Below, one piece after another: positions 34,658 through 50,879 of a stretch of 64,000 nucleotides of DNA (its first letter is position 1; the number at the start of each line of letters is the position of its first letter). Source of the DNA: a virus; the IMG/VR virus record IMGVR_UViG_3300031992_000005, positions 32,001 to 96,000 of that record; one strand, given 5' to 3'. A model generated the notes under the pieces. That model searched no databases. It was not told where the DNA came from and worked only from the letters and a program-made list of their open reading frames with translations. A program made the translations under genes and the position numbers.

Positions 34658-34946
34658 TGACATTTTCTCATTCTTAGATCATTCGATGGAGTGGTTAAAG
34701 AAAAGAGAAGTAACTAAAACTTCTGTTATAATAGAAGAATTGAAGAAGGCAAAAGAAATCCTACAAAAGGATTCTATAGATGACGATCTTAAGCTCTCCT
34801 ATTATAATAATATCAAAGAGAAATTCTTAGAGGTATCGAATAAGATGATTGAATTAAGTCAATTAGAAGACTCCCTATTAACAGCCTTTAGAATACTAGA
34901 AGAGAATGAGATCGATGATAGTGATAGTGAAGAGACTATCGAATAA
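34644..34946 (+). CDS. acidic coiled-coil protein (100 aa)
   Basis: Intact ORF with E/D/K/L-rich heptad-like sequence. Confidence 0.5.
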   Translation: MNEINDIFSFLDHSMEWLKKREVTKTSVIIEELKKAKEILQKDSIDDDLKLSYYNNIKEKFLEVSNKMIELSQLEDSLLTAFRILEENEIDDSDSEETIE

Positions 34947-35298
34947 TACATTTCGATTTTATTGTAAAAATGCAGATCGTGAGAGTTATAGAGAGTTATC
35001 AAATTACCGTTTTGACAAAGAGGAGGATAATAATATCATCACGATAATGGAGTCCGAAAATAATTTCCCAGATTATAAAATATCTCCAAATATATATTTT
35101 ATAATAATTCGGGAAAATGACTTTCTTTGGAAATTTGGAAAACTATCTGGTTACAATAACTATAACTTGGAAGAACAACTTCAGCTTCTCACAAGTAACA
35201 ATAAAGTCGCAAAAATAAAAAAAGCAAAATTAGTTGAAGTAAACAAAAACAATATAGTATATGAATTTAATTATAAAGTGTCCGATTTGTGGACATGA
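34906..35298 (+). CDS. hypothetical protein (130 aa)
   Basis: Intact ORF. The 41-nt overlap with the upstream gene makes the start uncertain. Confidence 0.45.
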   Translation: MRSMIVIVKRLSNNTFRFYCKNADRESYRELSNYRFDKEEDNNIITIMESENNFPDYKISPNIYFIIIRENDFLWKFGKLSGYNNYNLEEQLQLLTSNNKVAKIKKAKLVEVNKNNIVYEFNYKVSDLWT

Positions 35299-36230: not shown

Positions 36231-36247
36231 TAAAATAAAAAAATATT

Positions 36248-36727
36248 ATGAACAATAGAAATTATTTAGGATTCTTAAAAGAAAAACAGCAATTGTTTAA
36301 TAGAATTGGAATCAAGTGTAAAAGTTTAGATGAACAAGTTTACAAGCTTGAACAAAATGAAAAAGATCTAAGTATTCTTGTAGAAGATCTCAGCGAAAGA
36401 GTTCCATTCAGGCCATTAGTGAAATGTGGAGTAGTAGGTTACCCATTCATCTTAGTGGGAATTGATGTAACTCATGAGAATGTTGCAGTACAGTTGATAA
36501 ATACTTTCAACCATATAAAATTTGAAACAACAATCGATAAGGTAAGACTGTACTTGAGATCTCTAGAGAATATGACAGAGGAAGAAAAACTGGAGGAAGA
36601 AAGACTCCATGATCCTCGAATCTGTATCTCTGAATTAATAACATTCTATAAGAAGAATAACCTCGATTATAGAGGCCTTATCCCAAGAGGTCTTGCAATC
36701 GAACAAATCCCAGAAAACCATGAATAA
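36248..36727 (+). CDS. family A small protein, diverged outlying copy
   Basis: Central LYLRSLENMTEEEK and C-terminal LDYRGLIPRGLAIE match the anchors of the 45-55 kb array. Confidence 0.7.
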   Translation: MNNRNYLGFLKEKQQLFNRIGIKCKSLDEQVYKLEQNEKDLSILVEDLSERVPFRPLVKCGVVGYPFILVGIDVTHENVAVQLINTFNHIKFETTIDKVRLYLRSLENMTEEEKLEEERLHDPRICISELITFYKKNNLDYRGLIPRGLAIEQIPENHE

Positions 36728-36845
36728 GTTATTACAACAACTTTGCGAGGAATTACCTAATTATTCTACAGGTAAAGACGGTAAGCCTTACTTAAGGCCA
36801 TTAACTAACATGACCGAAGAAGAATTAAGGACATTTCGAATTTAA
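36720..36845 (+). pseudogene. truncated family A copy (41 codons: N-terminal and central anchors only)
   Basis: Hand translation gives MNKLLQQLCEELPNYSTGKDGKPYLRPLTNMTEEELRTFRI-stop. It lacks the whole C-terminal anchor. Confidence 0.6.
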
Positions 36846-36848
36846 GTG

Positions 36849-37082
36849 ATGACTCTTGTAAAAAAATTAGGAGAAAAGTTATATAACTGGACAAATAAAA
36901 ACCTACACTTCCTAATTGGTATTGCAATAATAGGAATTGTCTGTTCTATTATTGGACACTATGGAACAATGGGATTTGATCTCAGGTGGTTTTTTGGATT
37001 TGAATTACCATTATACCTATTTCTCCTTTGGGCTATTTTTAAAATAATGAAAATTTTTAAAAATAATGGATCAAAAAGATAA
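36849..37082 (+). CDS. small two-TM membrane protein (77 aa)
   Basis: Hydrophobic helices FLIGIAIIGIVCSIIG and LPLYLFLLWAIFKIM. ATG at 36849. Confidence 0.55.
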   Translation: MTLVKKLGEKLYNWTNKNLHFLIGIAIIGIVCSIIGHYGTMGFDLRWFFGFELPLYLFLLWAIFKIMKIFKNNGSKR

Positions 37083-37527
37083 GGAAAAATTAATTCAGAT
37101 TATTTGTGCAATGTTTCCCTACGGTTTAAACTGCTACTACACAATAGATGAAAAGTGGCATAGTATTACCGGAGTAGAAAATGATGCGGTGAGGTTATTG
37201 GGATCTAACGGTCGTCATGAATTTGTTGAAAAGTGGGAAGGAGATCTAGATACAATCAAGATCGGACTTCGACCACTATCTACAATGACCGAAAAAGAGA
37301 AGGAAGAACTATATACAGATCCAGATACTGATTATCTTTGTCGTGCAACAGTAATTGTTCCAGAAAATGAAGAAATTTATTTTAGGTTTGTTGATACCAA
37401 AATCGAATTTCTTTATAAAAACGTTACATTCTTCTTTAAGAAGAAATTTGATATATTGGGTCTAATAGAACAAGGTTTAGCAAAAGAGTATAACTATGAT
37501 AATGATAAATCCTTGGGCAGGATATGA
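37066..37527 (+). CDS. family A small protein, diverged outlying copy
   Basis: KLIQIICAMFPYGLNC, IGLRPLSTMTEKEKEEL and FDILGLIEQGLAKE are collinear with the array anchors. Confidence 0.7.
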   Translation: MDQKDKEKLIQIICAMFPYGLNCYYTIDEKWHSITGVENDAVRLLGSNGRHEFVEKWEGDLDTIKIGLRPLSTMTEKEKEELYTDPDTDYLCRATVIVPENEEIYFRFVDTKIEFLYKNVTFFFKKKFDILGLIEQGLAKEYNYDNDKSLGRI

Positions 37528-37804
37528 TCCAGATGATATACCTGACCTAAATCCTCATAGTAAAGAGGAGGAATATGGATGTATTGCAGGAATTATAGCA
37601 TTCTGTTTATCTTCTGCTATATTCATTGCACTTCAGGCAGTGATATTGAAGCTTAAATTAAGCGACACCATAGATACAAACATGCATATGGCCCTCATCT
37701 TAGTAAATATAATCATTTTTGTGATTATAACAATATGTTTTATGAAGCTGTCTTTTAAGATAGCTGATTATCTCTATGATAGAAATAAAAAGAAAAAATT
37801 ATGA
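37496..37804 (+). CDS. small membrane protein (102 aa)
   Basis: Two TM helices and a basic C-terminus, with an ATGA overlap to the next gene. Confidence 0.5.
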   Translation: MIMINPWAGYDPDDIPDLNPHSKEEEYGCIAGIIAFCLSSAIFIALQAVILKLKLSDTIDTNMHMALILVNIIIFVIITICFMKLSFKIADYLYDRNKKKKL

Positions 37805-39840
37805 AAACAATAGAAGAAAAAGCAAAAGCTTATGATGAGTTCTTAAAAAGAGCAAAAGAACTATACAACAAAGACCACTATAAATCCGAAGACCTCAAAT
37901 ATATCTTTGGAGATGACCTGAAAGAAGAAAATGATGGGAAAAATTTAATAGAAACCCTCATTAACTTCTTCACTTCTTATAAGATCGAAAAAGTTGGAGA
38001 ATTTACAAGTGATCAGATAGTGGGCTGGCTGAAAAAGCAGCTTGAGAGACCAAAATATGAGTGGAGTGGGAAAATCACGTCCCGTAAAGCAAAAGGAAAG
38101 TTAAGTGCATTACTGAAAGATCTTGAGTCTCGGAAAAAGATCGACAATAGACCAATCTTTAGAATTGGCGATACACTCAAGAAAAAAGGAAAAGACTATA
38201 CTTTCACCGTTGATAGAATACAGGGCGGATATTATCACTGTGATCGCAATAATGGTGCCTTCTTTCCTATAGAGGAACAGTATGATTGGGAACTTATTGA
38301 TGATGGGAAAATATCCCCAAAATTTAAGGCCGGGGATTGGATCGTTTCACCAAATAATTTAGTTTTCAAAATTACTCATGCAAGTTCGCATAGCTACACA
38401 CTACATCTATATAACGATGATTATAGGATATTTGAAACTGAAAGTTGGCATATAGATAAAGAATATCACCTCTGGACTATTGCTGATGCAAAGCCCGGCG
38501 ATGTCCTTTACCATTCAGACAGTGCAAGCCACGGGATTTTCATCTTCAAGGGAATCCTCCAAATGGGGTTTAGTGAGAAGGTCACGTGCTATTGCGACTA
38601 TGATTCGGAAGATGGCTTCTGTATTGGTGAAAACCACACCTGTTGCTGGACAGACAGCAAGATTCTACATCCAGCAACCAAAGAACAGCAAAAAATTTTA
38701 TTCCAAAAAATGAAAGAAGCTGGGTGGACTTGGGATGATGAGAAGAAAGAGCTTGAACAGAAGTCTATAGATGAGGCTGAGTCGGAATTTAAGATTGGCG
38801 ACTGGATTACATTCTATGGATATAAGCCACTTAAAATACTTAAAATTGAACCAGAACAAAGTGGTATTTTGGATTATCTTTTATTAAACTTAAGTGGTCA
38901 TGACACTTATTATAATAAAAGACAAGTTGATAAAAAAGCAAGACTGTGGACAATAGAAGATGCCAAGGATGGTGATGTCCTTGCATCACACGAATGTTAC
39001 GTGAGATTCAAAGAAATTGATGGACCCAACATTAGGTGTTACTGCACGTATCATTATATGAATGATCCGAGTTTTAGTATAAATACCCTGCACAACAAGA
39101 GTGCCTTTCATCCAGCCACTAAAGAGGAATGTGAACTTTTATTCCAAAAAGCGAAAGAGGAAGGATATGAATGGGATAAAGAGCATAAGAATAGTGAAAC
39201 AGAAAATGAGACTGTTGAAAAGTTCATAGTTGGAAAATGGTATTTATGCATAAAGGATTTCTTTGGCAAGGGTGTTCGTTTCGATAAAGGGATTGCATAT
39301 TATTGCGCAAAAGAAGGATGTCTGCAATGTGAATATGGATGTCATATAGCGATCGTCAAAGATCTGTATGATTATTTCAAATTGTGGACAATCCAAGATG
39401 CCAAGGATGGAGATGTCCTTGTATCTACATGGAAAGGGAATCAATACATCTATATATTTAAAAATATAGAACATGATGCCATTATATCATACATCTATTA
39501 TTGTCCTAAATTTGACGAAGTGGATATAGATGCTGCTATCAATATGGATAACATCCCAACAGTTCCTGCAACAAAAGAACAACAGGAGTTGCTTTTCTCA
39601 AAAATAAAGGAAGAAGGTTACAAGTGGGATGATACTAAAAAATTAGAGGTAGATACGAACCAAAATAGTTCGTCCATTACTGAACAGAATCTTACTTGGA
39701 GTGAGGAAGATGAAGTTATGTGCCAGGAAACTATAGATTGGTTTGAACAGAAGTGTTTTCCTTATGCTTCAGAAGAAGAAAATCCTGCAAAGAAAAGTAT
39801 TCAGTGGCTCAAATCACTAAAACAAAAAATGGGAAAGTGA
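37801..39840 (+). CDS. family B large repeat protein (679 aa; three ~130-aa modules)
   Basis: The internal module occurs three times: F.IGDW... then [HRK]LWTI.DAK.GDVL... then [HV]PATKE[QE]...LF.K.KE.G[YW].WD. There is one WLKKQ element near the N-terminus. Confidence 0.75.
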   Translation: MKTIEEKAKAYDEFLKRAKELYNKDHYKSEDLKYIFGDDLKEENDGKNLIETLINFFTSYKIEKVGEFTSDQIVGWLKKQLERPKYEWSGKITSRKAKGKLSALLKDLESRKKIDNRPIFRIGDTLKKKGKDYTFTVDRIQGGYYHCDRNNGAFFPIEEQYDWELIDDGKISPKFKAGDWIVSPNNLVFKITHASSHSYTLHLYNDDYRIFETESWHIDKEYHLWTIADAKPGDVLYHSDSASHGIFIFKGILQMGFSEKVTCYCDYDSEDGFCIGENHTCCWTDSKILHPATKEQQKILFQKMKEAGWTWDDEKKELEQKSIDEAESEFKIGDWITFYGYKPLKILKIEPEQSGILDYLLLNLSGHDTYYNKRQVDKKARLWTIEDAKDGDVLASHECYVRFKEIDGPNIRCYCTYHYMNDPSFSINTLHNKSAFHPATKEECELLFQKAKEEGYEWDKEHKNSETENETVEKFIVGKWYLCIKDFFGKGVRFDKGIAYYCAKEGCLQCEYGCHIAIVKDLYDYFKLWTIQDAKDGDVLVSTWKGNQYIYIFKNIEHDAIISYIYYCPKFDEVDIDAAINMDNIPTVPATKEQQELLFSKIKEEGYKWDDTKKLEVDTNQNSSSITEQNLTWSEEDEVMCQETIDWFEQKCFPYASEEENPAKKSIQWLKSLKQKMGK

Positions 39841-39844
39841 AATT

Positions 39845-40072
39845 ATGGAAACACCAGAGAAGATCTATATTCGTGTCAAAAACGGTAAAGTACTTAACAC
39901 ATGGAATAGTATGTGGAAAGGCGTTAATGACGTTGAGTACTTACGCAAGGATGCTTTTATGGAAAAAGTTTATAAATGTATTAAAGAGAACTTTCCGGAA
40001 ACAGACTCCCGTTTTGATGAAGATTTTACCGAAAAGTTAATCAGTTCTTTCCGTAAAGTAGTAGAAGAATAA
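39845..40072 (+). CDS. hypothetical protein (75 aa)
   Basis: Intact ORF packed between its neighbours. Confidence 0.5.
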   Translation: METPEKIYIRVKNGKVLNTWNSMWKGVNDVEYLRKDAFMEKVYKCIKENFPETDSRFDEDFTEKLISSFRKVVEE

Positions 40073-40074
40073 TT

Positions 40075-40242
40075 ATGAAAGTAATTAAACAAAGGAATGA
40101 AAAAGAAGTTTCCTGTCCAAAATGTAAAACTACTTTTCTTTATGCACCACAAGACATATACCATACATCAGATTTAGACAATGAATGGTTTTATGCAGTG
40201 AAATGCCCGGAGTGTGGAAAGGAAATACAAATCAGAATATAA
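40075..40242 (+). CDS. zinc-ribbon miniprotein (55 aa, below ORF-track cutoff)
   Basis: Hand translation gives MKVIKQRNEKEVSCPKCKTTFLYAPQDIYHTSDLDNEWFYAVKCPECGKEIQIRI, with CPKC...CPEC. Confidence 0.5.
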   Translation: MKVIKQRNEKEVSCPKCKTTFLYAPQDIYHTSDLDNEWFYAVKCPECGKEIQIRI

Positions 40243-40250
40243 ATTATAAA

Positions 40251-40418
40251 ATGGATATAGAGAATTTTAAATTAGTTATATGCGCTATTGCTCTTATAGC
40301 ATACGCCGCTTTAGTAGAATGTGGTGTCAAAAAAGCTAAAAGCAAAAAACTCAGAATATACCATATTGTTGAGTTAATTGGTATTTTGATAATATACTAT
40401 TTTCGTAGTAAAAATTAA
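40251..40418 (+). CDS. small membrane protein (55 aa; start refined)
   Basis: The track ORF from 40185 overlaps the zinc-ribbon ORF. The in-frame ATG at 40251 gives MDIENFKLVICAIALIAYAALVE..., with two hydrophobic helices. Confidence 0.45.
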   Translation: MDIENFKLVICAIALIAYAALVECGVKKAKSKKLRIYHIVELIGILIIYYFRSKN

Positions 40419-40431
40419 ATAATTAATAGTT

Positions 40432-40557
40432 ATGGAACCAAAAGAAAAAATCACATTGCCTCAATGGTTCTACGAAAAGTCAACCGAATTGAGGATAGAG
40501 TTTGACAGAAAGATGGACTATCTTATGGCAAAATTATATAACCTTGATAACAATTAA
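40432..40557 (+). CDS. hypothetical miniprotein (41 aa)
   Basis: Hand-translated intact ORF that fills an otherwise empty gap. Weak evidence. Confidence 0.3.
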   Translation: MEPKEKITLPQWFYEKSTELRIEFDRKMDYLMAKLYNLDNN

Positions 40558-40561
40558 AAAT

Positions 40562-40735
40562 ATGATGCCTATGTTTCCACACCAACGACAACTAGTTAGA
40601 GCTCTTAGAACACTTATACCTCCTAATTGTGGGGATGGTAAGAAAATCGAAATAGTCAGTGTTTATGACCAAAGACCAGATGACTGGAATAGACCTGATT
40701 ATTTAAATTATGAGCACCTAAAACAATCAAAATAA
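40562..40735 (+). CDS. hypothetical miniprotein (57 aa; start refined)
   Basis: The in-frame ATG at 40562 (MMPMFPHQRQ...) avoids overlap with the 40432 ORF. Confidence 0.4.
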   Translation: MMPMFPHQRQLVRALRTLIPPNCGDGKKIEIVSVYDQRPDDWNRPDYLNYEHLKQSK

Positions 40736-40746
40736 AAAGTATAGTT

Positions 40747-41085
40747 ATGGAAAAGAACTGTGAAATTAAAATTGAGAATGATGGTTTTGTGTATAACAAC
40801 GTACAATATAAATGTGCGCGTGCAATTAAAAGGGATAAAAAGATAATCCTTCAGCAAGCGGTATCGCACAAGAAAGAATTTGACGAGCTATATGATAGAA
40901 ATACACTGCGAGCAGATTCTGTACGTCTCACCTTCAATGAGAAGAACGAACCTATATTCGGGATGGTATTATATATCATCAACTATAAAGAAGGGCGACA
41001 TGGGCGATATGCTTGTGGAGAGTATTATCCAATCTCCTCGAAAACATTGGAACCTCACATTTATCAGGGAAGTATTTGTTGGTAA
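40747..41085 (+). CDS. hypothetical protein (112 aa)
   Basis: Intact ORF. No motif recognised. Confidence 0.55.
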   Translation: MEKNCEIKIENDGFVYNNVQYKCARAIKRDKKIILQQAVSHKKEFDELYDRNTLRADSVRLTFNEKNEPIFGMVLYIINYKEGRHGRYACGEYYPISSKTLEPHIYQGSICW

Positions 41086-41105
41086 TAATAAATAAAAAGA
41101 CAGTT

Positions 41106-41993
41106 ATGAAGAAGAAAACAGATTTTTCTCTTGGAACACTCAACAGTGAGCTCCAAGAACAAGAGATCCAGGTACCGGACGGATATGAAGCGAGTATTGA
41201 AGGTGGAAAAATCATCTTTCGCAAGTCGGAAAGTGAAGACGAGAAGATAAGGAAGATATTAGTTGGATTTTTCAAAGGTTATAAAGAGGAAGGCACTATA
41301 GGGGCTGAAACATTTAACGGAATACCAACTGATAATATTCTTGCTTGGCTTGAGAAGCAAAGTAAGTGCAATCCTTGTAGTGGAACATCATTTGAATATA
41401 ATGGTCATACCTGGGGAATGTGCGCAAGAGATAATGGAGTTGAAATTATCCTTGATGGTGAACTTAAGGCATTTCTTTCACCAAAGAGATCCTTTATTTA
41501 TCCTATTCACCTTCAGCCATCTATCGAATCTATACCTACACAAAAACCCACCAATGAAACAAAGATTAAATCAAGGTTTCATGAAGGCGATTGGATTGTT
41601 TTCAATGGATTTACTCTACTTATTGAAGAGGTTGTCCAAGGATATTATAGAACAGTCTCTATTAATGGTATTCATAATAGTTACGATTGGGATATAGATA
41701 ATTTAGCAAGATTATGGACCATCCAAGATGCTAAGGATGGTGACATACTTACGTGTTATAGTACCAAAAAAGGTGAACCAATCATGCAAACCGGTATATT
41801 TAAGCAATATATGGCAAATAACTGCTTTTTGGCATATATAGGCATTGATTGGGATGGTAATCTCAAAACAGACTTTTATATGGGCAATACTTTGATGGGT
41901 AGTACTATAGGCAATACTGATATATTTCCTTCCACTAAAGAACAACGCGACTATTTTCTCGCTGAGACAAGTAAGGCAGGGTTTAAAGTGTGA
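41106..41993 (+). CDS. family B repeat protein (295 aa; one module)
   Basis: EDEKIRKILVGFF plus ILAWLEKQ, then FHEGDWIVF ... RLWTIQDAKDGDIL ... PSTKEQRDYF. ATG at 41106 (MKKKTDF). Confidence 0.7.
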   Translation: MKKKTDFSLGTLNSELQEQEIQVPDGYEASIEGGKIIFRKSESEDEKIRKILVGFFKGYKEEGTIGAETFNGIPTDNILAWLEKQSKCNPCSGTSFEYNGHTWGMCARDNGVEIILDGELKAFLSPKRSFIYPIHLQPSIESIPTQKPTNETKIKSRFHEGDWIVFNGFTLLIEEVVQGYYRTVSINGIHNSYDWDIDNLARLWTIQDAKDGDILTCYSTKKGEPIMQTGIFKQYMANNCFLAYIGIDWDGNLKTDFYMGNTLMGSTIGNTDIFPSTKEQRDYFLAETSKAGFKV

Positions 41994-42030
41994 GATAAAA
42001 TTTTTGTTATAATTCTTAAATAAAAAAGTT

Positions 42031-44142
42031 ATGATCAACTCTGAAATTATACTAGAGAACATAGTAAAAATCGTAAAAGATGAGAAAAACAGTGATATTG
42101 GTTTTTCTAAAATCTATTCTTACTTATGTGAAAATTTCCCCGAACTCAAAGAGAACGAGGATAAGAAAATAAGAAAGGAATTGATTGATTTCTTGCAAGA
42201 AACCATTGACAATGTTGGTGAATATTCTCCCAATAATTGGGAAAACAAAGCTAAAAAATGGATTGCTTGGCTAGAAAAGCAGAGCAGACAGAAGGCTGTT
42301 GATTGTGAAAATACCCAACAGAAGGATATTGTTCAAGAACCAGAACCAGAGGATGAGAGAATAAGAAATTGGTGTATTTCACATTTTAAGGAATGTATTA
42401 GAGTCTCGAAAATTAACGTGGAATACCAAAAATATCTTAGTAACAAAGTAATCCCTTGGCTTGAGAAGCAAGGTGAACAAAAGAATCTTGCACAAAAACC
42501 AATAACAGGGGATGAGAGAATAAGAAAAGGTCTCATCCATGCGGTATCTGGAACATTGAAAGGTAACACTTTGTTCGGCACTGACGTAACAAGAGAAGAG
42601 GCGTTATCTTGGCTTGAAAAGCAAGGTAAAAATTCACAATGCAGATCAATCATAGAAGCGTGGAAAGATATGCGTTTAGAAGTGTATCAACAAGCGAGTG
42701 GTAATAGGCATGAGCCTAATTATTCTGATGACAGTACTAAGATGTTTTCGCTCAATGACATTGACGAAATAATTGAAAAGATAAACGAGCAAACAGAAAA
42801 GCAAGACTACGAATCTCAGGACATCACAGAATCAAAACCAGCAGTAGGAACTTTGGCTGATGAAATTAAGTTTCCCTTTAAAGCCAAGGTGAAAAAGAGC
42901 AATAAAATTATCGTAATTACAGGTGGACAATTAGACGATGCTCAACCAATAGAATCTCGCTCATACCTAGCATATACATCTGACATAACTGATGGATATA
43001 AGGTATATAAGCCAGAGGAATTAGAATTTATAAAACAACCTGGGTTCAAAGTAGGGGACTGGGTGGTAAATAAATTAGGTGATGCCTGGCATATAGATAG
43101 TTTCTATGGGGAAAACTATCAAGTTTCTAATGGAAAAGGAAACTTTAGTTACTTCCCAATATCCAAGCAAGATGAAATGCACCTCTGGACGATTCGAGAT
43201 GCAAAAGAAGGTGATGTGCTTGTAGATGCGTATGGAAACATAGGTATATATGAGAAATGTGATTATTCTGATTGGAGGTCTTATTGTTCTTTAGGGCATA
43301 ACGGAGGTTTTCAACATTTTAAAACAGAACACGAAAATGAAAAAACGTATCCAGCCACCAAAGAACAGCGTGATGCTCTTGAAAAGGCTATAACTAATGC
43401 AGGTTATTCATGGGATGGAGAGTTAAAGAAAAATACGAAGTTTAGTAAAGGGGATTGGATTTACCGAGGAACAGGAGATCCTTATTTTGTAGAATCAGTC
43501 TTTAACGAGCAATATGAATTGTGCTCGGGATTTGGGTATCATTTCAACAAGGGAACTGATGAAGTTGATAGCGATTACAGGCTCTGGAATATAAATGACG
43601 CCAAGCTTGGTGATATTCTTGCGGATGATGATAAAACAATCGCCCTTTATGAAGAACAATCCACAAAGACATTCTTTCACGTCCTTTGCTATTACTGTAA
43701 TAAGACATTTGTACCGAAAAAGGGTACACTTGCTGTCCTAGGTTTTCACCCAGCAACCAAAGAGCAAAGAGAATTTTTCAGTAATGAACTAAAAAAGTCA
43801 GGATATAACTTGGATTTAGAGAAAAAACAACTGGCTGATCAGCCTAAACTCACTAAGTTTGAGCAGTCCTTAAAGCACATTATTGAAGAAGCCTTAGATG
43901 ATGGAGATACACATAATCTTAAGGCTGATGCAGAACTACTTCTATCGGTAGCAAATCAGGATAGAGCTAAGATTGAGTTAACCATAGAAGAAGAAGATGC
44001 CCTCGACCAGGCTATTATATCACTTAATGATATGTTTGATGATAGTCAACCTGAAACTTGTTATGCAGGTCATCACGTACCCTTTGATGTAGCAGCTAAA
44101 TGTCTTAGTAGCTTAAAAGATAAGATTCTAAACAGTAAGTAA
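42031..44142 (+). CDS. family B large repeat protein (703 aa; three [DE]E[KR]IR-WLEKQ units plus two ~130-aa modules)
   Basis: ENEDKKIRKEL..WIAWLEKQ, EDERIRNW..VIPWLEKQ and GDERIRKGL..LSWLEKQ are followed by two modules carrying LWTIRDAKEGDVL/YPATKEQRDAL and LWNINDAKLGDIL/HPATKEQREFF. Confidence 0.75.
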   Translation: MINSEIILENIVKIVKDEKNSDIGFSKIYSYLCENFPELKENEDKKIRKELIDFLQETIDNVGEYSPNNWENKAKKWIAWLEKQSRQKAVDCENTQQKDIVQEPEPEDERIRNWCISHFKECIRVSKINVEYQKYLSNKVIPWLEKQGEQKNLAQKPITGDERIRKGLIHAVSGTLKGNTLFGTDVTREEALSWLEKQGKNSQCRSIIEAWKDMRLEVYQQASGNRHEPNYSDDSTKMFSLNDIDEIIEKINEQTEKQDYESQDITESKPAVGTLADEIKFPFKAKVKKSNKIIVITGGQLDDAQPIESRSYLAYTSDITDGYKVYKPEELEFIKQPGFKVGDWVVNKLGDAWHIDSFYGENYQVSNGKGNFSYFPISKQDEMHLWTIRDAKEGDVLVDAYGNIGIYEKCDYSDWRSYCSLGHNGGFQHFKTEHENEKTYPATKEQRDALEKAITNAGYSWDGELKKNTKFSKGDWIYRGTGDPYFVESVFNEQYELCSGFGYHFNKGTDEVDSDYRLWNINDAKLGDILADDDKTIALYEEQSTKTFFHVLCYYCNKTFVPKKGTLAVLGFHPATKEQREFFSNELKKSGYNLDLEKKQLADQPKLTKFEQSLKHIIEEALDDGDTHNLKADAELLLSVANQDRAKIELTIEEEDALDQAIISLNDMFDDSQPETCYAGHHVPFDVAAKCLSSLKDKILNSK

Positions 44143-44148
44143 ATTTAC

Positions 44149-44178
44149 TCCTCCCTTAACGGGGAGGGATTCTTTTTT
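44149..44178 (+). terminator. intrinsic terminator
   Basis: TCCTCCC-TTAACG-GGGAGGG hairpin followed by ATTCTTTTTT, just after the stop at 44142. Confidence 0.65.
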
Positions 44179-44187
44179 ATTACTCCA

Positions 44188-44215
44188 GGGCTTTCATTTC
44201 TTTATCTATGTAATG
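44188..44215 (+). promoter_or_regulatory. promoter-like motif heading the array operon
   Basis: GGGCTTTCATTTCTTTATCTATGTAATG, about 35 nt upstream of the ATG at 44251. Confidence 0.4.
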
Positions 44216-44250
44216 AAATTTATAGATACAAATTCTAAAAATATTATAAT

Positions 44251-44631
44251 ATGGATAAGATCGTTCAAGAAAGGTATTGCTCGCCTAAAGTAGCAAGATT
44301 ATTAGCAAGTAAAGGATTTGATGAACCTATTTGGACTCGTTATGAAGATAACAATGAGGTTATATTTGGTGATAAATATAATTGGAATAGTAGTCCAGTG
44401 GGACAAACATCTGCGCCAACTCAACAAATGGCTATAGACTGGTTAATAGTAAATCACGATATATACATAGAAGTATTTCCTTATTCCAAGGATGAGTATG
44501 CTTTTAGTATTAGTAAACTATTACCTAAAGACGTCGAAGGCTATCCATTACCTAATGAGGAAGAAAGTTATAAAGATATAAGAGTAGCTACAGATACTGC
44601 TCTTGAATATGTACTTGAAAACTTAATCTAA
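44251..44631 (+). CDS. hypothetical protein (126 aa)
   Basis: Intact ORF, first gene after the terminator/promoter pair. Confidence 0.55.
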   Translation: MDKIVQERYCSPKVARLLASKGFDEPIWTRYEDNNEVIFGDKYNWNSSPVGQTSAPTQQMAIDWLIVNHDIYIEVFPYSKDEYAFSISKLLPKDVEGYPLPNEEESYKDIRVATDTALEYVLENLI

Positions 44632-44846: not shown

Positions 44847-45082
44847 TCAGTAGAGAAGAAGCTAAGAGACAATGCCTTGAATGGGTAGATAAAGAAATTT
44901 CAGAAAAAGGCGAGGATTCTATATATTGCTTATCTCCTTGTATTGGAAAAAATAGCTGGACTCTAAAAGAATATAGAGATGCAGTTATTAACGATGTACC
45001 AATGGAAGGTTGCATAGACAATCCAATAGACGATTATCTTAACTATATAAAATGGAAGGATGAACATGGACGAGGAAAATAA
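44843..45082 (+). CDS. hypothetical protein (79 aa)
   Basis: ATGA overlap with the upstream gene. Confidence 0.5.
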   Translation: MISREEAKRQCLEWVDKEISEKGEDSIYCLSPCIGKNSWTLKEYRDAVINDVPMEGCIDNPIDDYLNYIKWKDEHGRGK

Positions 45083-45476
45083 GTTATTGAGATTTCTCAG
45101 TATGGCTTTACCTTATGGAGTTTTTTGTATAAACTCCGAAGATGAGAATAGTAAAGCCTATAAGCTAAAATCAATTAATAAGCATAAAGGATTATGGTAT
45201 TATGGGTTTGATGGATTTAGCTGTCTTAAACCATTACCGTATCTCCGCCCATTATCTTCTATGACCGAAGAAGAGCATAGTAACTTATTCAATGCTTATC
45301 ATTACTTAGAGGTGAAAGTAGCAAAGTCAACAGGAGATTACTTAAAAGCGGCTTATATAGGTGATGATGCTAAGTATAAGTGGCTTCTTGAAAATAAGTT
45401 TGACTTTCTAGACTTAATTTCAGATGGATTAGCTATTGAAATTACTGAGGAAAACAATCCGTATAAGAAGTTATGA
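45060..45476 (+). CDS. family A small protein, array copy 1
   Basis: KLLRFLSMALPYGVFC; LPYLRPLSSMTEEE; KWLLENKFDFLDLISDGLAIEITEENNPYKKL. Confidence 0.8.
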   Translation: MNMDEENKLLRFLSMALPYGVFCINSEDENSKAYKLKSINKHKGLWYYGFDGFSCLKPLPYLRPLSSMTEEEHSNLFNAYHYLEVKVAKSTGDYLKAAYIGDDAKYKWLLENKFDFLDLISDGLAIEITEENNPYKKL

Positions 45477-45685
45477 AAACATTTCACTTATTTGGAAAAT
45501 GGCAAGTAACCTTTCTTCATAATATTTACATTAATGAAGATACAAAGAGACTGTCAGAGCTAATAGTTACCCTTATTCCAACTATTCAAATCCTAATAGG
45601 CGGAAAAGGGATAGATGATGAGATATTGATTTCTTGGTTAATATTTACAATACAAGTAGATAATGGCTATTCAAACAGTAAATAA
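45473..45685 (+). CDS. hypothetical protein (70 aa)
   Basis: ATGA overlap with copy 1. No family A motif. Confidence 0.45.
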   Translation: MKTFHLFGKWQVTFLHNIYINEDTKRLSELIVTLIPTIQILIGGKGIDDEILISWLIFTIQVDNGYSNSK

Positions 45686-46064
45686 ATTATGCACCTCAAT
45701 TGGACAATCTAACAACCTGAGATCATTAGGACTTGATATCCATACCGCCGACACTTATTGGTGGTTTTCAGGCGATAAGTTCTATATGGGGACGATGGAT
45801 GATGGTGATTTCGACGAAAAAGCTGATCAACCTTCTTGGAGCTTAGCTGCACTGGAAAAGTTAATTCCGCCAACTATAACTGATGATGAAGGTGAAACTT
45901 ATAAAATTTCTATAACAAAAAATGAACAAAGTAAAAAGTGGACTGCTTGCTATGTAAACAAAGAGCACGATCAGGTCTGCTGTATCTTCTGTGAAGAATC
46001 TCCGGACCTAATAGATGTTTTTTATAACACGGTATGTATGTTACTACTTGCGAAAAAAATATGA
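45663..46064 (+). CDS. family E protein (paralogue of 54153..54575)
   Basis: Shares S.GQSNNLRSLGLDIHTADTY and QPSWSLAALEKLIP with SAEQSKRLVELGIDVNTADM and EPAWSLSALLDLLP. Confidence 0.6.
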   Translation: MAIQTVNKLCTSIGQSNNLRSLGLDIHTADTYWWFSGDKFYMGTMDDGDFDEKADQPSWSLAALEKLIPPTITDDEGETYKISITKNEQSKKWTACYVNKEHDQVCCIFCEESPDLIDVFYNTVCMLLLAKKI

Positions 46065-46432
46065 ATACTGCAGAAGAATTTATAAAAAAGTATCCTGTAG
46101 GTACATTAATTTCATACATAGAAGGAGTACAGTATGTACGATCTGGTGCAAGAACTATCTTCAAAATAGGTAGATATGAACGGCGCACGAATGATCCTTG
46201 GGGATATTATATGTATGGGACCTACTGCGGATTTAACTTTCAAACAACAAGTTATAAGAAAGAATATTCTACATCAGACTTACCAAAGTGGCGATGTATC
46301 ATTTGCGAGACTGACCCCTTCGGTACTTCTTTAGGAATACTATCACATAAATTTAACGACGTTAGACTTGCAAACGACCTTGAAACTAGTATATTCAATG
46401 ACTGCATAACTAACGGAAGAGTAATCTCATGA
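46061..46432 (+). CDS. hypothetical protein (123 aa; start refined)
   Basis: The ATG at 46061 forms an ATGA overlap with the upstream stop (MNTAEEFIKKYPVG...). Confidence 0.55.
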   Translation: MNTAEEFIKKYPVGTLISYIEGVQYVRSGARTIFKIGRYERRTNDPWGYYMYGTYCGFNFQTTSYKKEYSTSDLPKWRCIICETDPFGTSLGILSHKFNDVRLANDLETSIFNDCITNGRVIS

Positions 46433-46863
46433 CTAAACTAGAAAAGCAGTTAATACTTCAGGATCTCTGTTCGAGATTATTATGCGGTGTAGTTTGTAGA
46501 ATCACTTTTACTTACAGTAATGAAACTACATTTGGCGAAGAAGTTGAGAATGAGGTTGATGATACAATTAGTATGATCAACATTAAACGAGAAACAGTTT
46601 TCGCGGACTACTTAGGCCGTGAATTTGATATTGAAAATGTTAAGCCTTATCTTCGTTCAATGGATGATATGACAGAGGAAGAATATAAAGAATATTGGAA
46701 TATTGATAATCGGTCATATTCTTGTCCAATGGTCTGTGCACATATCCCCGCTTCAGAAAGAATAGATTGGCTTAATAAACGTCACTTTGATTACCGTGGA
46801 CTTATTGGAAAATGCCTGGCCATTAAAGTTGATGAAATTAATAATCCTTATGATAAACTATAG
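46429..46863 (+). CDS. family A small protein, array copy 2
   Basis: KQLILQDLCSRLLCGVVC; VKPYLRSMDDMTEEE; IDWLNKRHFDYRGLIGKCLAIKVDEINNPYDKL. Confidence 0.8.
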   Translation: MTKLEKQLILQDLCSRLLCGVVCRITFTYSNETTFGEEVENEVDDTISMINIKRETVFADYLGREFDIENVKPYLRSMDDMTEEEYKEYWNIDNRSYSCPMVCAHIPASERIDWLNKRHFDYRGLIGKCLAIKVDEINNPYDKL

Positions 46864-46879
46864 ACATTCCAAACCTAAG

Positions 46880-47392
46880 ATGACTGAACAGTGTAAGCAG
46901 CTATTACTTCAAGATCTCTGCTCTAGACTACCATATGGTGTAAAAGTGTATAACACAAGCTTCGCAGAGCCGTATCAGGTACAAACATTATTCGGTAGAA
47001 AGTCAGAGGACGAGTTTATTATGAAAGAAACTTATAAATCTTTTGACTTAAATAACCGTCCAACTCGTATAAAAAATTATACTGGATACTTAGATCGTTT
47101 AAAGCCATATCTTCGACCTATGTCAAGTATGACTAAGGAGGAGAAATTGGAATATATATCCATTATAGATGGAACGCGATGGACTACCACCGTAGGTTTA
47201 GAGGAGAAAATAATTCTATCCATTGACTTAGTAGAGTGTAAAGCCGAAGATGGGACACCTGATAATATATACGATATCATTCAAATGACTCCCATTGATT
47301 GGCTACTAGAGAGACATTTTGATATTAGGGGTCTTATCTATAAAGACCTTGCTATTAAAGTGACAGAAGAAAATAATCCTTATAAAATATGA
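46880..47392 (+). CDS. family A small protein, array copy 3 (start refined)
   Basis: ATG at 46880 (MTEQCKQLLLQDLCSRLPYGVKV); LKPYLRPMSSMTKEE; IDWLLERHFDIRGLIYKDLAIKVTEENNPYKI. The track's upstream extension is an out-of-frame read of copy 2. Confidence 0.8.
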   Translation: MTEQCKQLLLQDLCSRLPYGVKVYNTSFAEPYQVQTLFGRKSEDEFIMKETYKSFDLNNRPTRIKNYTGYLDRLKPYLRPMSSMTKEEKLEYISIIDGTRWTTTVGLEEKIILSIDLVECKAEDGTPDNIYDIIQMTPIDWLLERHFDIRGLIYKDLAIKVTEENNPYKI

Positions 47393-47796
47393 CACAGGAA
47401 GAAAAATTGCTTTTATTAAAAAGTCTTTGTGAAATGTTGCCTTATAAGGTGAAAGTAGAAATCATTTCATATGGACAAGAGACTTTGAAACCTTGGTTTG
47501 GGGAGTTATCTTGTAAAGACTTAGATTGTTTTATAGTTGATGTAGCATACAAAAGTGTTAAGCCATACCTCCGTCCGATGTCAAGCATGACTGAGGAAGA
47601 AGAAAAAGAGTATAGGAAGACTCAAATTACAAAATGGATTAAAAGTGTTGATTGTGCAGGTGGAGGATACTATGACCATAGAGACACCTTAAAAACATTT
47701 GATTGGCTAAAAGCTAATCATTTTGATTATAGAGGTTTAATCAAGAGAGGTTTAGCCATTAAGGTAACTGATGAAAATAATCCTTATAAATCATGA
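47389..47796 (+). CDS. family A small protein, array copy 4
   Basis: MTQEEKLLLLKSLCEMLPYKVKV; VKPYLRPMSSMTEEE; FDWLKANHFDYRGLIKRGLAIKVTDENNPYKS. ATGA junction. Confidence 0.85.
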   Translation: MTQEEKLLLLKSLCEMLPYKVKVEIISYGQETLKPWFGELSCKDLDCFIVDVAYKSVKPYLRPMSSMTEEEEKEYRKTQITKWIKSVDCAGGGYYDHRDTLKTFDWLKANHFDYRGLIKRGLAIKVTDENNPYKS

Positions 47797-48134
47797 CTCA
47801 GGAGGAGAAAAAAATTTTGCTCAAAGATCTTTGTGGTAGATTACCTTATGGAACAATTTATGATATTACAATTGGTGGGGTAACCTATGTAAAAGTATCA
47901 TTAAATTCATTTTATTATGGTTTAATTGAAAAAAATTTTAATAATGGGCAATTACAATCAATAGTTCCATATCTTAAAAAAAATGATATGTCATTTGAAC
48001 ATAAAGGTTTTTATTTAGAAAATCTTGATTATGTAATTGATTATTATAACTCTAATCATATTGATTATAGAGGATTTATTGAGAAAGGACTAGCTATTGA
48101 AGTGACTAATGAAAATAATCCATATAAGTTATGA
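47793..48134 (+). CDS. family A small protein, array copy 5 (central anchor degenerate)
   Basis: MTQEEKKILLKDLCGRLPYGTI. The central anchor has decayed to VPYLKKNDMSFEHKG. C-terminal NHIDYRGFIEKGLAIEVTNENNPYKL. ATGA junction. Confidence 0.8.
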   Translation: MTQEEKKILLKDLCGRLPYGTIYDITIGGVTYVKVSLNSFYYGLIEKNFNNGQLQSIVPYLKKNDMSFEHKGFYLENLDYVIDYYNSNHIDYRGFIEKGLAIEVTNENNPYKL

Positions 48135-48532
48135 CACAAGAAAGTAAAGAACTGATTTTAAAGGATATATGCGGGAGACTCCCTTATGGAACAATTGTTC
48201 AAATATCTCTTTATAGAAATGATGAAAAAAGAAGTGATATTGAATTAGATCCTCATGTAACGGAGAATATTTGGGAAATAATTGATAAATATCATGCGCT
48301 TCCCTATCTACGTCCAATGTCAAGCATGACGGAGGAAGAAAAGATAATACAAAAAACATATATTTATCATTTTTCAGGAAATAATCTTCCTAATTATGAA
48401 GGTGATTTTGTATTTGAAGATGAAGTACATGAATACATTGATTGGCTAAACGCTAATCACTTCGACTATAGAGGCCTTATCGGAAAAGGACTTGCAATCG
48501 AAGTAACGGAAAGTAATAATCCTTATGAATAA
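48131..48532 (+). CDS. family A small protein, array copy 6
   Basis: MTQESKELILKDICGRLPYGTIV; LPYLRPMSSMTEEE; IDWLNANHFDYRGLIGKGLAIEVTESNNPYE. ATGA junction. Confidence 0.85.
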   Translation: MTQESKELILKDICGRLPYGTIVQISLYRNDEKRSDIELDPHVTENIWEIIDKYHALPYLRPMSSMTEEEKIIQKTYIYHFSGNNLPNYEGDFVFEDEVHEYIDWLNANHFDYRGLIGKGLAIEVTESNNPYE

Positions 48533-48953
48533 TATAATGCAGGAAGATAAAAAAATACTTCTCCAGGATCTTTGTGCAAGATTACCGTATGGAGTAAAAA
48601 TAACAGATGGTTTGAATGTAATCAAAGCAGACCCATTTATCAGTATTGGTGTATTTGTTTATGATGGTAAGTGGAAACCCTATCTCCGTCCAATGTCAAG
48701 TATGACGGAGGAAGAGTATGAAACACTGAAGTCTTTAAGTACTATCTATATTCCCACTGATAGTAGAAATATAGGATTTGAAGATTACGGTATACTAGTA
48801 TTTACGCACCATCTCACCAATAATACTTATAGTTTCAAATTAAACATAAAAGTAATTGATTGGCTTCTTGAAAATCATTTTGATTACAGAGGTCTTATTG
48901 AGAAAGGCCTTGCTATAAAAGTGACAGAAGAAAATAATCCATATAAGTTATGA
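48525..48953 (+). CDS. family A small protein, array copy 7
   Basis: KKILLQDLCARLPYGVKI; WKPYLRPMSSMTEEE; IDWLLENHFDYRGLIEKGLAIKVTEENNPYKL. Confidence 0.85.
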   Translation: MNNIMQEDKKILLQDLCARLPYGVKITDGLNVIKADPFISIGVFVYDGKWKPYLRPMSSMTEEEYETLKSLSTIYIPTDSRNIGFEDYGILVFTHHLTNNTYSFKLNIKVIDWLLENHFDYRGLIEKGLAIKVTEENNPYKL

Positions 48954-49417
48954 CAGAACAGGATAAAAAATTACTCTTAATAGATCTCAGTGCAAGGTTT
49001 CCATATGGAGTCATTGTTAGGCATGCAGATCATTTAGTTGACTCCGATGGTAATTATACTGGACAATTTTGGTATAAACGAGGTTATCTATATGATATTT
49101 GTAGGATAGATAATATAACAACTACAATTATCGAAAGTGAAGGTAGCGATGAAGAAGGTAATGAGCATATTTGTGACCTAGAAAGATCTCTGCCTTATCT
49201 CCGCCCAATGTCAAGTATGACGGAGGAAGAGATAAAAGAATTTTATAAAATTGAAAATATAATACCAAAGATGGGATATATTTGCCCGTCAAAAGATTGG
49301 CATTTTACTACCAATGGTTTTGATTGGCTTAATGCTAATCACTTCGACTACAGGGGTCTTATTGAGAAAGGACTTGCTATTGAGGTAACTGATAAAGATA
49401 ATCCATACATATTATGA
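48950..49417 (+). CDS. family A small protein, array copy 8
   Basis: MTEQDKKLLLIDLSARFPYGVIV; LPYLRPMSSMTEEE; FDWLNANHFDYRGLIEKGLAIEVTDKDNPYIL. ATGA junction. Confidence 0.85.
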   Translation: MTEQDKKLLLIDLSARFPYGVIVRHADHLVDSDGNYTGQFWYKRGYLYDICRIDNITTTIIESEGSDEEGNEHICDLERSLPYLRPMSSMTEEEIKEFYKIENIIPKMGYICPSKDWHFTTNGFDWLNANHFDYRGLIEKGLAIEVTDKDNPYIL

Positions 49418-49557
49418 CAAAATATTTAATTATTTTAAATCCAGTAGATGGAATATATCAAGTTGATATTGATTTATATGATTCAGAAGAAGCTGCTCGA
49501 CTTAATTCCTTAATTGATGAAGAAGATATTTATAAAATAATTCCAATAGAATTTTAA
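49414..49557 (+). CDS. hypothetical acidic miniprotein (47 aa)
   Basis: Hand translation gives MTKYLIILNPVDGIYQVDIDLYDSEEAARLNSLIDEEDIYKIIPIEF. ATGA overlap with copy 8. Confidence 0.4.
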   Translation: MTKYLIILNPVDGIYQVDIDLYDSEEAARLNSLIDEEDIYKIIPIEF

Positions 49558-49560
49558 AAC

Positions 49561-50040
49561 ATGACAAAAGTCAGGATAGAACAAGATAAAAATTTACTAT
49601 ATCAAGACATTTGTGCAAGATTGCCTTACGGTGTGATAGGGCAAATTAGCATAGAAGTACTTGACGGAACCTATGATATAAATAGCGGACACCTTGAATA
49701 TAAAGATGTTGATGTAGATGTTGAATTACTTGGTATACAAGAGGAAGAGATAATCTTTTCGACGATTAATGAAACATATGACGTAAATACATGTACATAT
49801 TTAGACTTTACTCCATATCTCCGTTCGATGTCTAGTATGACTGAGAAAGAGAAGGAAGAGTATTGTAATCTACAATGTATGTTTCTTTATAGCAGCCAGT
49901 ATCCAGTAACAGAAGCTCATAAACTGTTTGATTGGCTTCTTGAGAATCATTTTGATTATCGTGGCCTTATTGAAAAAGGTCTTGCCATTGAAGTTAATGA
50001 AAGTAATAATCCGTATAAAGAGTATGATACAAGAAAGTAA
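49561..50040 (+). CDS. family A small protein, array copy 9
   Basis: KNLLYQDICARLPYGVIG; FTPYLRSMSSMTEKE; FDWLLENHFDYRGLIEKGLAIEVNESNNPYKEYDTRK. Confidence 0.85.
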   Translation: MTKVRIEQDKNLLYQDICARLPYGVIGQISIEVLDGTYDINSGHLEYKDVDVDVELLGIQEEEIIFSTINETYDVNTCTYLDFTPYLRSMSSMTEKEKEEYCNLQCMFLYSSQYPVTEAHKLFDWLLENHFDYRGLIEKGLAIEVNESNNPYKEYDTRK

Positions 50041-50413: not shown

Positions 50414-50505
50414 AAGACAAAGAAAAAAAATGTTATTGTTATCCCTTCATCTTATATGAGAGATTATGATAATAACAGAGAGGAAATCTTCAAATTAGGG
50501 AAGAA

Positions 50506-50856: not shown

Positions 50857-50879
50857 AAAATACGAATTAGAAAATCAAT

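Follow-up and report, generated by a model that had tools for sequence, protein, structure and literature searches.

A phage-encoded family of predicted SH3-like barrel arrays in which barrels are exchanged as cassettes within a constant frame

Introduction

In SH3, Tudor and KOW domains, the ligand site is formed by strands 2-4 and their loops. Two consecutive five-stranded barrels of this class are found in KOW2-KOW3 (4ytl) and KOWx-KOW4 (5oho) of Spt5 and in the tandem Tudor domains of BAHCC1 (8ye8), SETDB1, 53BP1 and FXR1. SH3-like barrels are also strung together as binding modules in lysostaphin (SH3b) and in the GW proteins of Listeria, and such repeats are frequent in phage-related proteins. 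A different kind of modularity is represented by the T-even gp38 adhesins, in which conserved glycine-rich motifs delimit hypervariable segments (PMC3157838). In polyvalent proteins and in the internal proteins of T4, variable cargo is joined to a conserved targeting sequence at the N-terminus. Elements that are in conflict with their hosts also encode multi-domain arrays. The present work concerns three neighbouring genes, designated A, B and C, in a 64,000-nucleotide stretch of viral DNA (positions 32,001 to 96,000 of IMG/VR record IMGVR_UViG_3300031992_000005; the whole stretch is called the window), whose products are built from six copies of a module of about 135 amino acids (aa) and from a shorter unit with the pattern EDERIR…WLEKQ.

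The module is predicted to share the pair of five-stranded barrels with the tandem KOW and Tudor domains. In contrast to these, it has a C-terminal helix and hairpin and a junction, LWTIQDAKDGDVL, that are without counterpart there, and the proteins are phage-encoded, acidic and without a Pfam KOW or Tudor match. Nor was any of the marks of the SH3b and GW proteins found here, i.e., a profile match, a catalytic lysin domain, a signal peptide or a lysis-cassette location. The likeness to gp38 lies in the way diversity arises: short conserved motifs provide the frame and at the same time the joints for recombination, and phages exchange what lies between these motifs, so that the resulting diversity is combinatorial. 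However, whole barrels and not loops are exchanged here, and gp38 is a tail-fibre tip protein encoded next to the fibre genes, whereas the module genes lie among replication and accessory genes. The gp38 fold, a polyglycine sandwich, is unrelated to SH3-like barrels. Mosaic exchange is shared with receptor-binding proteins and does not establish membership among them. The polyvalent proteins differ in that known anti-restriction, nuclease, methylase and protease domains were not found in the proteins scanned in this work. Since the profiles of the compared families were tried and did not recognise these proteins, the family, judged from sequence and predicted structure, is a member of none of them; it resembles tandem Tudor and KOW proteins in fold and gp38 and tail-fibre mosaics in evolution. 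The proteins are best described as SH3-like barrel arrays whose frame, unusually, holds two cassettes, and their family is very large, restricted to phages and without annotation.

Results and discussion

Module copies and predicted fold

A preliminary description of the window had reported three module copies in protein A, one in B and two in C, and all six were recovered at independent E-values (i-E) of 1e-29 to 1e-55 with a profile hidden Markov model (HMM) built from protein B and 99 outside homologues. The module consensus given there held for the frame motifs: F..G[DK]W, LW[TN]I.DAK.GD[VI]L and P[AS]TKE[QE] each occur six times in the three proteins, as found by regular expression and MAFFT alignment. 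It needed correction in two copies, A2, which reads PATKEE, and A3, which starts with FIVGKW. The described [DE]E[KR]IR…WLEKQ units were confirmed as three in C and one in B, but the unit of A proved degenerate and the first unit of C reads EDKKIR. In the MAFFT alignment, the six module segments (about 135-150 aa) have 19 invariant columns and are 28-38% identical to the first copy.

Module C1 was modelled by AlphaFold2 from an alignment of 126 sequences, with a mean predicted local distance difference test score (pLDDT) of 92.7 and a predicted template modelling score of 0.84. In the model, barrel 1 (residues 10-51) consists of strands 10-13, 18-25, 28-32 and 38-42, a short helix and strand 49-51, and barrel 2 (residues 62-101) of strands 62-64, 70-77, 80-87 and 98-101. 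They are followed by a helix (110-122), which begins at PATKEQ, and by a hairpin (125-136). The AlphaFold2 model of the whole protein B has a pLDDT of 80 overall and above 90 over the module. The unit is modelled there as two helices, 44-61 and 75-86, with block-mean pLDDT values of about 86-94 for aa 41-80 and about 75 for aa 81-90, and the small barrel that follows it (strands 95-98, 101-108, 111-116 and 119-124) with pLDDT values of 61-75.

The earlier guess that the module has an SH3/Tudor-like fold was borne out by the two barrels of C1 and by its structural neighbours. In a Foldseek search of the PDB, tandem KOW and Tudor domains were the best matches (E 2.5e-4 to 1e-2, probability up to 1.0). 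Among them, the tandem KOW domains of Spt5 ranked first (E 2.5e-4 and 3.5e-4, the latter for KOW2-KOW3), with a root-mean-square deviation of 7-8 Å and a template modelling (TM) score of only 0.28-0.38. The tandem Tudor domains of BAHCC1, SETDB1, 53BP1 and FXR1 were matched with probabilities of 0.69-0.99 but TM scores of about 0.3, and further matches were SH3-like domains of TraI, the C-terminal Tudor domain of UvrD, RapA and ribosomal protein eS4. Over the PDB matches, TM scores were 0.28-0.38 and sequence identity was 9-17%, with 9-16% for the tandem KOW and Tudor domains. A fold search of BFVD gave only uncharacterised or weak matches. A first strand of the F.VGDW type is typical of the Tudor/Agenet class. 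The predicted fold class, tandem SH3/Tudor/KOW-like barrels, may thus be regarded as established at the level of the model, but it does not place the module in any particular family. A weak in-register match between the profiles of barrel 1 and barrel 2 (FKvGDWIv against AKdGDVL, probability 34%) hints that the two may stem from an old internal duplication, a suggestion that is left weak.

The structural neighbours raise the question of whether the proteins bind nucleic acid, RNA polymerase or the ribosome and redirect host gene expression, as do the KOW domains of Spt5 and NusG, the Tudor-like domains of UvrD, Mfd and CarD and the N-terminus of RapA. The top matches, Spt5 KOW arrays, the UvrD Tudor domain (which is bound to the RNA polymerase beta lobe), RapA and eS4, are consistent with such a role, as are the sigma factors and DNA-metabolism genes found among the neighbours. 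However, acidic proteins and modules with an isoelectric point (pI) of about 5.1 fit direct nucleic-acid binding poorly, no KOW or Tudor model was found in the Pfam scans, and hundreds of unrelated barrel types would be unexpected in a protein docking on conserved RNA polymerase or ribosomes. A role of this kind is therefore considered very unlikely.

Exchange of barrels within a constant frame

For a comparison of the barrels, 580 unique full modules from the window, from fetched loci (L001-L087) and from retrieved homologous proteins (P-numbers, e.g., P0098) were aligned to the module HMM. Conservation peaked only at three frame motifs, EPKFKVGDW, HLWTIQDAKDGDVL and HPATKEQRDLLFQKMKEAGYEWDAEKKELKK. 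In terms of the model, the frame comprises the opening strand of barrel 1 (FKVGDW), the stretch from the closing strand of that barrel through the linker to the first strand of barrel 2 (the junction named above), and the helix together with its cap (HPATKEQRxLFxKMKEAGYEWD).

Between the frame motifs, identity in barrel 1 did not predict identity in barrel 2 (r=0.06 over 167,910 pairs). Barrel 1 was at least 60% identical in 4,643 pairs, and in 3,981 of these barrel 2 was at most 25% identical; the converse was found in 965 pairs, and both halves were alike in only 213. Single-linkage clustering at 50% identity gave 165 barrel-1 and 180 barrel-2 types, many of them singletons, in 480 combinations, with an adjusted mutual information of 0.098. 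The most widely combined barrel-1 type is found with 33 different barrel-2 types; for barrel-2 types, the corresponding maximum is 19 barrel-1 partners. Because types are reassorted in both directions, unequal evolutionary rates cannot explain the pattern.

Individual pairs illustrate the same point. A module of L012 and one of L057 are 24% identical in barrel 1 and 98% in barrel 2, and their DNA is codon-identical from GDVL to TKEQRDIL. The opposite pattern, with barrel 1 alike and barrel 2 not, was found between L063 and L069, and two modules within a single open reading frame (ORF) of L033 are 93% identical in barrel 1 and 15% in barrel 2. In these pairs, too, codon-identical tracts stop at GDVL and at TKEQRD. 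The ends of near-identical segments cluster at columns 59-62, i.e., at DGDVL. The barrels have thus been swapped independently as cassettes, with recent exchanges ending at the junctions GDW, LWTIQDAKDGDVL and PATKEQ. Since the synonymous positions of the junction codons differ among the six copies in the window, the frame appears to be constrained as protein and not as DNA.

Each of the six window modules carries a different combination of barrels. Barrel 2 of A1 is 81% identical to those of L007 and P0216, the corresponding barrels 1 being 12-23% identical, and barrel 2 of A2 is 75% identical to those of P0160 and of an L033 module (barrel 1, 13%). Barrel 1 of B1 is 82% identical to that of P0169 (barrel 2, 19%). 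In C1, barrel 1 is 85% identical to those of P0086 and P0001 (barrel 2, 12-21%) and barrel 2 is 83% identical to that of P0100 (barrel 1, 22%). Thus, in four of the five modules analysed (A1, A2, B1 and C1), one barrel or both are most closely related, at 75-85% identity, to barrels of other phages; A3 lies outside this set because its HMM match begins at profile position 37. Outside the frame motifs, the window modules are mutually only 2-26% identical and are therefore not recent duplicates. Considering the differing combinations and the relatives of single barrels elsewhere, it may be concluded that A, B and C were assembled from cassettes and not by recent tandem duplication.

The diversity could also be of little consequence. 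On this explanation, function would reside in the frame only, e.g., as a small binding or metal site or a structural spacer, and the barrels would vary through neutral drift and illegitimate exchange among the abundant, fast-evolving paralogues of recombination-proficient phages. Indeed, it is the polar residues of the frame (DAKDGD, PATKEQ) that are conserved most strongly, the vicinity is often occupied by RecE/RecT genes and transposases, and singleton barrel types are many. However, single cassette types are kept 75-98% identical between phages and between partners, which argues for purifying selection and not drift, and thousands of clusters have kept ORFs that are long and intact and hold as many as six modules. 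An explanation by the frame alone is accordingly held to be improbable.

No template-like repeat and no strong inverted repeats were found at 37000-44500, and a diversity-generating retroelement or a shufflon was rejected as a candidate; the repeats in this region are only frame motifs of 20-60 nt at 60-95% identity. No reverse transcriptase was found among the 20 larger ORFs of the window that were scanned. Transposases, which make up 9 of the 126 large neighbours, and RecE/RecT-like genes turn up repeatedly close to module genes, and these could supply the recombination that shuffles the cassettes.

Barrel 2 of A1 (window positions 38530-38700, about aa 245-300 of A) contains a Cys/His-rich insert, CYCDYDSEDGFCIGENHTCCW. 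It is common to a barrel-2 cassette type with 20 members (e.g., P0002, P0216 and L007), and its region gave a weak PHD_5 match (E 0.025, aa 258-286). The insert may be a zinc-binding knuckle inside the barrel.

Sequence searches, family size and distribution

The module had been described as unrecognised, and this was upheld: no entry of Pfam, PHROGs, NCBIfam or PADLOC was matched significantly by A, B or C, the sub-threshold noise in these scans consisting of PHD_5, Phi6_P8, DUF5461 and PglZ. No consistent family was found in 100 family members searched against Pfam or in 126 searched against PHROGs. Profile searches of PDB sequences with the module and with the unit gave nothing below E 0.05. 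The Pfam models of Tudor, Agenet and related domains were absent from A, B and C at E<=1 and from the 100 family members at E<=0.01, and the KOW motif (PF00467) was not found in the Pfam scans of either set. SH3_3, SH3_5, SH3_8 and GW models had no match in A, B and C at E<=1, and SH3_3, SH3_5 and GW had none among the 100 homologues. In the ten long homologues scanned with Pfam, there was no fused domain of known function, including any catalytic domain, and no Ig, BACON or CBM domain. No coiled-coil or collagen-like fibre segment was found in the proteins. The repeat thus matched no described tail-fibre or cell-wall-binding repeat, a match that the preliminary description had named as evidence for an ordinary structural repeat.

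No member of the family was given a name in any source. The motif strings were not found in a full-text search of a paper library, one survey of jumbo phages mentions neither paralogues nor SH3, and a cluster look-up of six homologues returned no names. Among 50,697 GenBank phage records, no match was obtained by megablast of the region or by tblastn of B and of the canonical homologue P0098.

The expansion noted within the window extends to thousands of metagenomic proteins. A word-indexed search with the six-module profile gave 750 proteins, the best of which are 150-260 aa long with one unit and one module. An exhaustive search of 1.84 billion cluster representatives (clusters at 50% identity) gave 15,733 matches at E<=1e-3, 7,218 at E<=1e-10 and 4,936 at E<=1e-30. 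The best 150 of the 15,733 are 330-950 aa long and contain 2-6 matched stretches; multi-module proteins like A and C are therefore common. At least 177 relatives were found in IMG/VR, many of them on contigs of 80-670 kb. By contrast, close full-length orthologues of A, B and C were not found, the best relatives being 39-50% identical over parts of the proteins; for C, the IMG/VR search gave at best 50% identity over part of the protein. Exactly the same protein C is present on four public contigs, two of them of 0.2-1 Mb.

In prokaryotes, a less sensitive scan with a single peptide pattern of one genome per species (185,579 genomes) gave only eight matching loci. All of them lie on contigs of metagenome-assembled genomes, several of ruminant origin, whose taxonomic labels are inconsistent. 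In essence, the family is restricted to phages, and it is nearly confined to large uncultured viral contigs.

Architectures were counted by an HMM scan of the fetched loci, 79 of which had matches. One unit with one module was found 68 times and is the typical arrangement outside the window; one unit with two modules was found 17 times, a module without a unit 19 times and a unit without a module 24 times. The largest single ORF (L058, 8948-12733; 1,262 codons) contains one unit and six modules, and in L033 (IMGVR_UViG_3300021431_000075, 673 kb) 17 modules are distributed over seven ORFs within 16 kb (1062-17160). In 30 ORFs of the loci, the unit stands by itself or is joined to other C-termini, with no module present, and it also forms stand-alone proteins of about 90 aa; it is therefore a domain in its own right. 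When the unit profile was used as the query, only short stand-alone proteins without Pfam domains were found.

In P0110 and its relatives, the N-terminal 85 aa or so form another domain, ending in LFPSK[DE]QRDW, in place of the unit. This ending echoes PATKEQR, and the domain may represent a third barrel type with a frame of its own.

Gene neighbourhood and site of action

Proteins A, B and C have pI values of 5.1-5.4 (A, 5.36; C, 5.06), and the median pI of the modules is 5.13. No hydrophobic segment fit for a signal peptide or membrane helix was found in them, since the maximum Kyte-Doolittle value in a 19-residue window is at most 0.88. The content of aromatic residues (Phe, Trp and Tyr) is 13.0% in the modules, the window average being 11.7%.

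Few of 150 sampled immediate neighbours of the homologues had a Pfam match. Those matched were S-adenosylmethionine (SAM) synthetase, SAM lyase, Tpt1, sigma-70, ClpP, resolvase, GmrSD_N, YopX, HTH/MerR, GNAT and glycoside hydrolase family 16 (GH16), and capsid, tail and baseplate families were absent from these matches. When 126 larger genes located up to 10 kb from module genes were considered, the PHROGs seen repeatedly were those of transposases, helicases, RecE/RecT, sigma factor, sliding clamp, polymerases and methyltransferase, and only three of the 126 genes matched terminase. No capsid or tail family was present among the 25 most frequent neighbour PHROGs of about 80 loci. No lysis-type family recurred among the sampled neighbours, in which the only glycoside hydrolase was GH16, encoded by a gene that overlaps the start of one homologue. 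In the window itself, the 20 larger ORFs scanned gave no match to capsid, tail or baseplate families. Action inside the infected cell is favoured because of the acidity of the proteins, their lack of export signals and this replication and accessory neighbourhood.

It is nevertheless conceivable that the proteins are associated with the virion, as decoration proteins, fibre-like adhesins or packaged and ejected proteins, the barrels recognising variable glycans of the host surface or the gut and the unit serving as an anchor or as a target for packaging. The junction-bounded exchange of cassettes resembles that of the T-even gp38 adhesins (PMC3157838), and the GH16 gene adjoining one homologue and the somewhat elevated aromatic content of the modules point in the same direction. 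SH3-like barrels serve in cell-wall binding in lysins, and the conserved N-terminal handle with variable cargo recalls the capsid-targeting sequences of the T4 internal proteins. However, no structural family was found in the scanned window ORFs or among the Pfam-matched neighbours, the recurrent neighbour PHROGs belong to replication and recombination with terminase being rare, the proteins lack a signal peptide and coiled-coil or collagen-like segments, the long homologues carry no Ig, BACON or CBM domain, and the SH3_3, SH3_5 and GW models were not matched. A virion location is thus thought unlikely.

Proposed function

The reading tentatively preferred here, and considered possible but somewhat short of probable, is that A, B and C are binding proteins with a constant frame and swappable barrels that are used inside the infected cell. 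They would be soluble, acidic, non-structural accessory proteins of a jumbo phage that act as polyvalent binding scaffolds. Each module is predicted to consist of a compact pair of five-stranded barrels closed by the C-terminal helix and hairpin. The barrel bodies, which include strands 2-4 with their loops and so the parts that make the ligand site of known SH3-like domains, are discrete, interchangeable cassettes recombining at the frame motifs. They would set the binding specificity, so that a phage could build single- or multi-module proteins with varied combinations of specificities. The two-helix unit, attached through a linker rich in Lys, Gln, Glu and Pro, would provide all of these proteins with the same handle, by which they dock or oligomerise. 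Most likely, such proteins would serve to bind, sequester or retarget variable host or competitor proteins during infection, and their targets would then be intracellular and related to conflict. That cassette types are kept highly alike across phages argues for purifying selection on each type for some property of its own.

Several points weigh against this proposal. The function is drawn from the fold class and the evolutionary pattern, and because the Foldseek TM scores are low, no specific functional homology can be claimed. Mosaic cassettes are no less typical of receptor-binding proteins of the virion than of intracellular proteins. Since jumbo phages scatter their structural genes, the absence of structural neighbours is no proof of absence from the virion. 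The arrangement in which the frame packs together and the variable parts face outward would follow from SH3 topology. Finally, the polar frame residues (D-A-K-D-G-D and T-K-E-Q) could themselves form a functional site, the barrels being replaceable.

A more specific form of intracellular binding would be a combinatorial repertoire, in which the frame carries hundreds of shuffled cassettes and the resulting polyvalent binders of large gut and rumen phages neutralise proteins of host defence or of competitor phages. This would be analogous in function to the framework and complementarity-determining regions of antibodies or to variable lymphocyte receptors, but built from SH3/Tudor-like barrels. 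In this specific form, the proposal is judged unlikely.

The family is one of the larger protein families still without annotation, and it is found almost exclusively in uncultured phages of large size from animal guts. Should the barrels determine specificity, nature would provide here a library of binding domains that are small and stable and share one scaffold, and the family would offer a tractable handle on the host targets of jumbo phages in Bacteroidota-rich ecosystems. Even with a mundane function, it would deserve a Pfam or PHROG entry, which would clear many "hypothetical proteins" of rumen and gut viromes. The size of the family, its confidently predicted fold and the clear cassette rule make experiments on the proposed function easy to design.

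Organisation of genes A, B and C

The features of the three genes are listed in Table 1.

Table 1. Positions of genes A, B and C and of their parts in the window (i-E from the module or unit HMM; motif starts, in aa, are those of F..G[DK]W / LW[TN]I.DAK.GD[VI]L / P[AS]TKE[QE])
Feature	Position	Strand	Extent (aa)	Motif starts	Remarks
Gene A	37801..39840	+	679		module HMM full-sequence E 3.7e-109, three significant domains; N to C: helix, degenerate unit, solitary barrel, modules A1-A3, WSEEDE…WLKSLK variant unit
Degenerate EDERIR…WLEKQ-type unit of A	37930..38058	+	44-86		ends WLKKQ; i-E 0.07
Solitary extra barrel of A (tentative)	38161..38310	+	121-170		RIGDTL…; assigned by sequence pattern
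Module A1	38323..38745	+	175-315	175/224/291	i-E 1.1e-46; barrel 2 of the Cys/His-rich cassette type
Module A2	38788..39186	+	330-462	330/382/438	i-E 2.8e-38
Module A3	39223..39639	+	475-613	475/528/589	i-E 3.8e-29
Variant unit WSEEDE…WLKSLK of A	39697..39822	+	633-674		regular expression; i-E 0.18
Gene B	41106..41993	+	295		beta hairpin, unit, small barrel, one module
Unit of B	41229..41369	+	42-88		two helices; i-E 2.5e-13
Small four-stranded barrel of B	41382..41480	+	93-125		AlphaFold2 model
Module B1	41577..41990	+	158-295	158/203/275	i-E 6.2e-40; without final hairpin
Gene C	42031..44142	+	703		three units, middle region, two modules, helical acidic tail
Unit C-1	42157..42282	+	43-84		i-E 1e-12
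Unit C-2	42352..42471	+	108-147		i-E 1e-8
Unit C-3	42511..42624	+	161-198		i-E 4.5e-8
Module C1	43045..43425	+	339-465	339/385/441	i-E 1.5e-55; most canonical copy, modelled
Module C2	43441..43824	+	471-598	471/518/574	i-E 8.2e-33; both barrels singleton types
Hairpin with T-run, resembling an intrinsic terminator	44148..44177	+			directly 3' of C; 8-bp stem, 5 GC pairs

Where gene B starts is ambiguous, as its ORF is already open from a TTG at 41013, 31 codons 5' of the ATG; public gene calls start B at the ATG (295 aa). With the solitary barrel of A, only the first half of the module HMM (positions 2-48) was matched, and weakly (i-E 4.3). The WSEEDE…WLKSLK pattern of the variant unit was found in 50 of 385 module-bearing proteins and in 12 of 10,046 other ORFs. 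Downstream of gene C, the hairpin is strongly terminator-like and marks the end of a transcription unit.

Beyond the six modules, a search of the six-frame translation of the 64-kb window with the module profile gave nothing better than E 0.016. This marginal match, to the second half of the HMM, lies in a 130-aa ORF (34906-35298, + strand), which may encode a very diverged single barrel or be matched by chance.

Other features of the window

The window has a G+C content of 32-41%, no tRNAs were found in it, and a long block of + strand genes extends from about 30 kb to its end. The identical protein C on contigs of 0.2-1 Mb, together with a gene at 12147-13727 whose counterpart in the 735-kb huge phage LR756501 is 49% identical, indicates that the window derives from a jumbo or huge phage, one of the gut or rumen. 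Its larger genes encode topoisomerase II, a nucleotidyltransferase, an amidoligase, a glutamine-amidotransferase-like protein, an ATPase, an HNH endonuclease, a phiEco32-type COOH-NH2 ligase, an SMC-like ATPase and two proteins with BspA-type leucine-rich repeats (LRR).

As had been described, the module genes are flanked by a second expanded family, designated family A (not to be confused with gene A). It comprises 17 full-length paralogues of about 135-160 aa and a short fragment, all on the + strand, at 36239-37524 and 45051-54973, with the motif RPLSSMTEEE…DYRGLI..GLAIE. It gave no significant Pfam match and one sub-threshold match to ROS_MUCR (E 0.0068). Members of family A were found within 10 kb of module genes in 46 of the 87 fetched loci. 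Homology of family A to the module or the unit was rejected (hhalign probability <3%).

The nucleotidyltransferase, amidoligase, glutamine-amidotransferase-like and phiEco32-type COOH-NH2 ligase genes are clustered with genes of unrecognised products at 20978-29806 (- strand), and this cluster looks like a pathway for a peptide, a metabolite or a DNA modification. The BspA-type LRR genes lie at 1715-2926 (- strand) and 61191-62111 (+ strand) and matched LRR_5 at E 3.5e-74 and 2.6e-14, respectively; the protein encoded at 61191-62111 also has a weak dockerin-like stretch. Proteins of this type are unusual phage cargo and may be related to interaction with the host or with surfaces.

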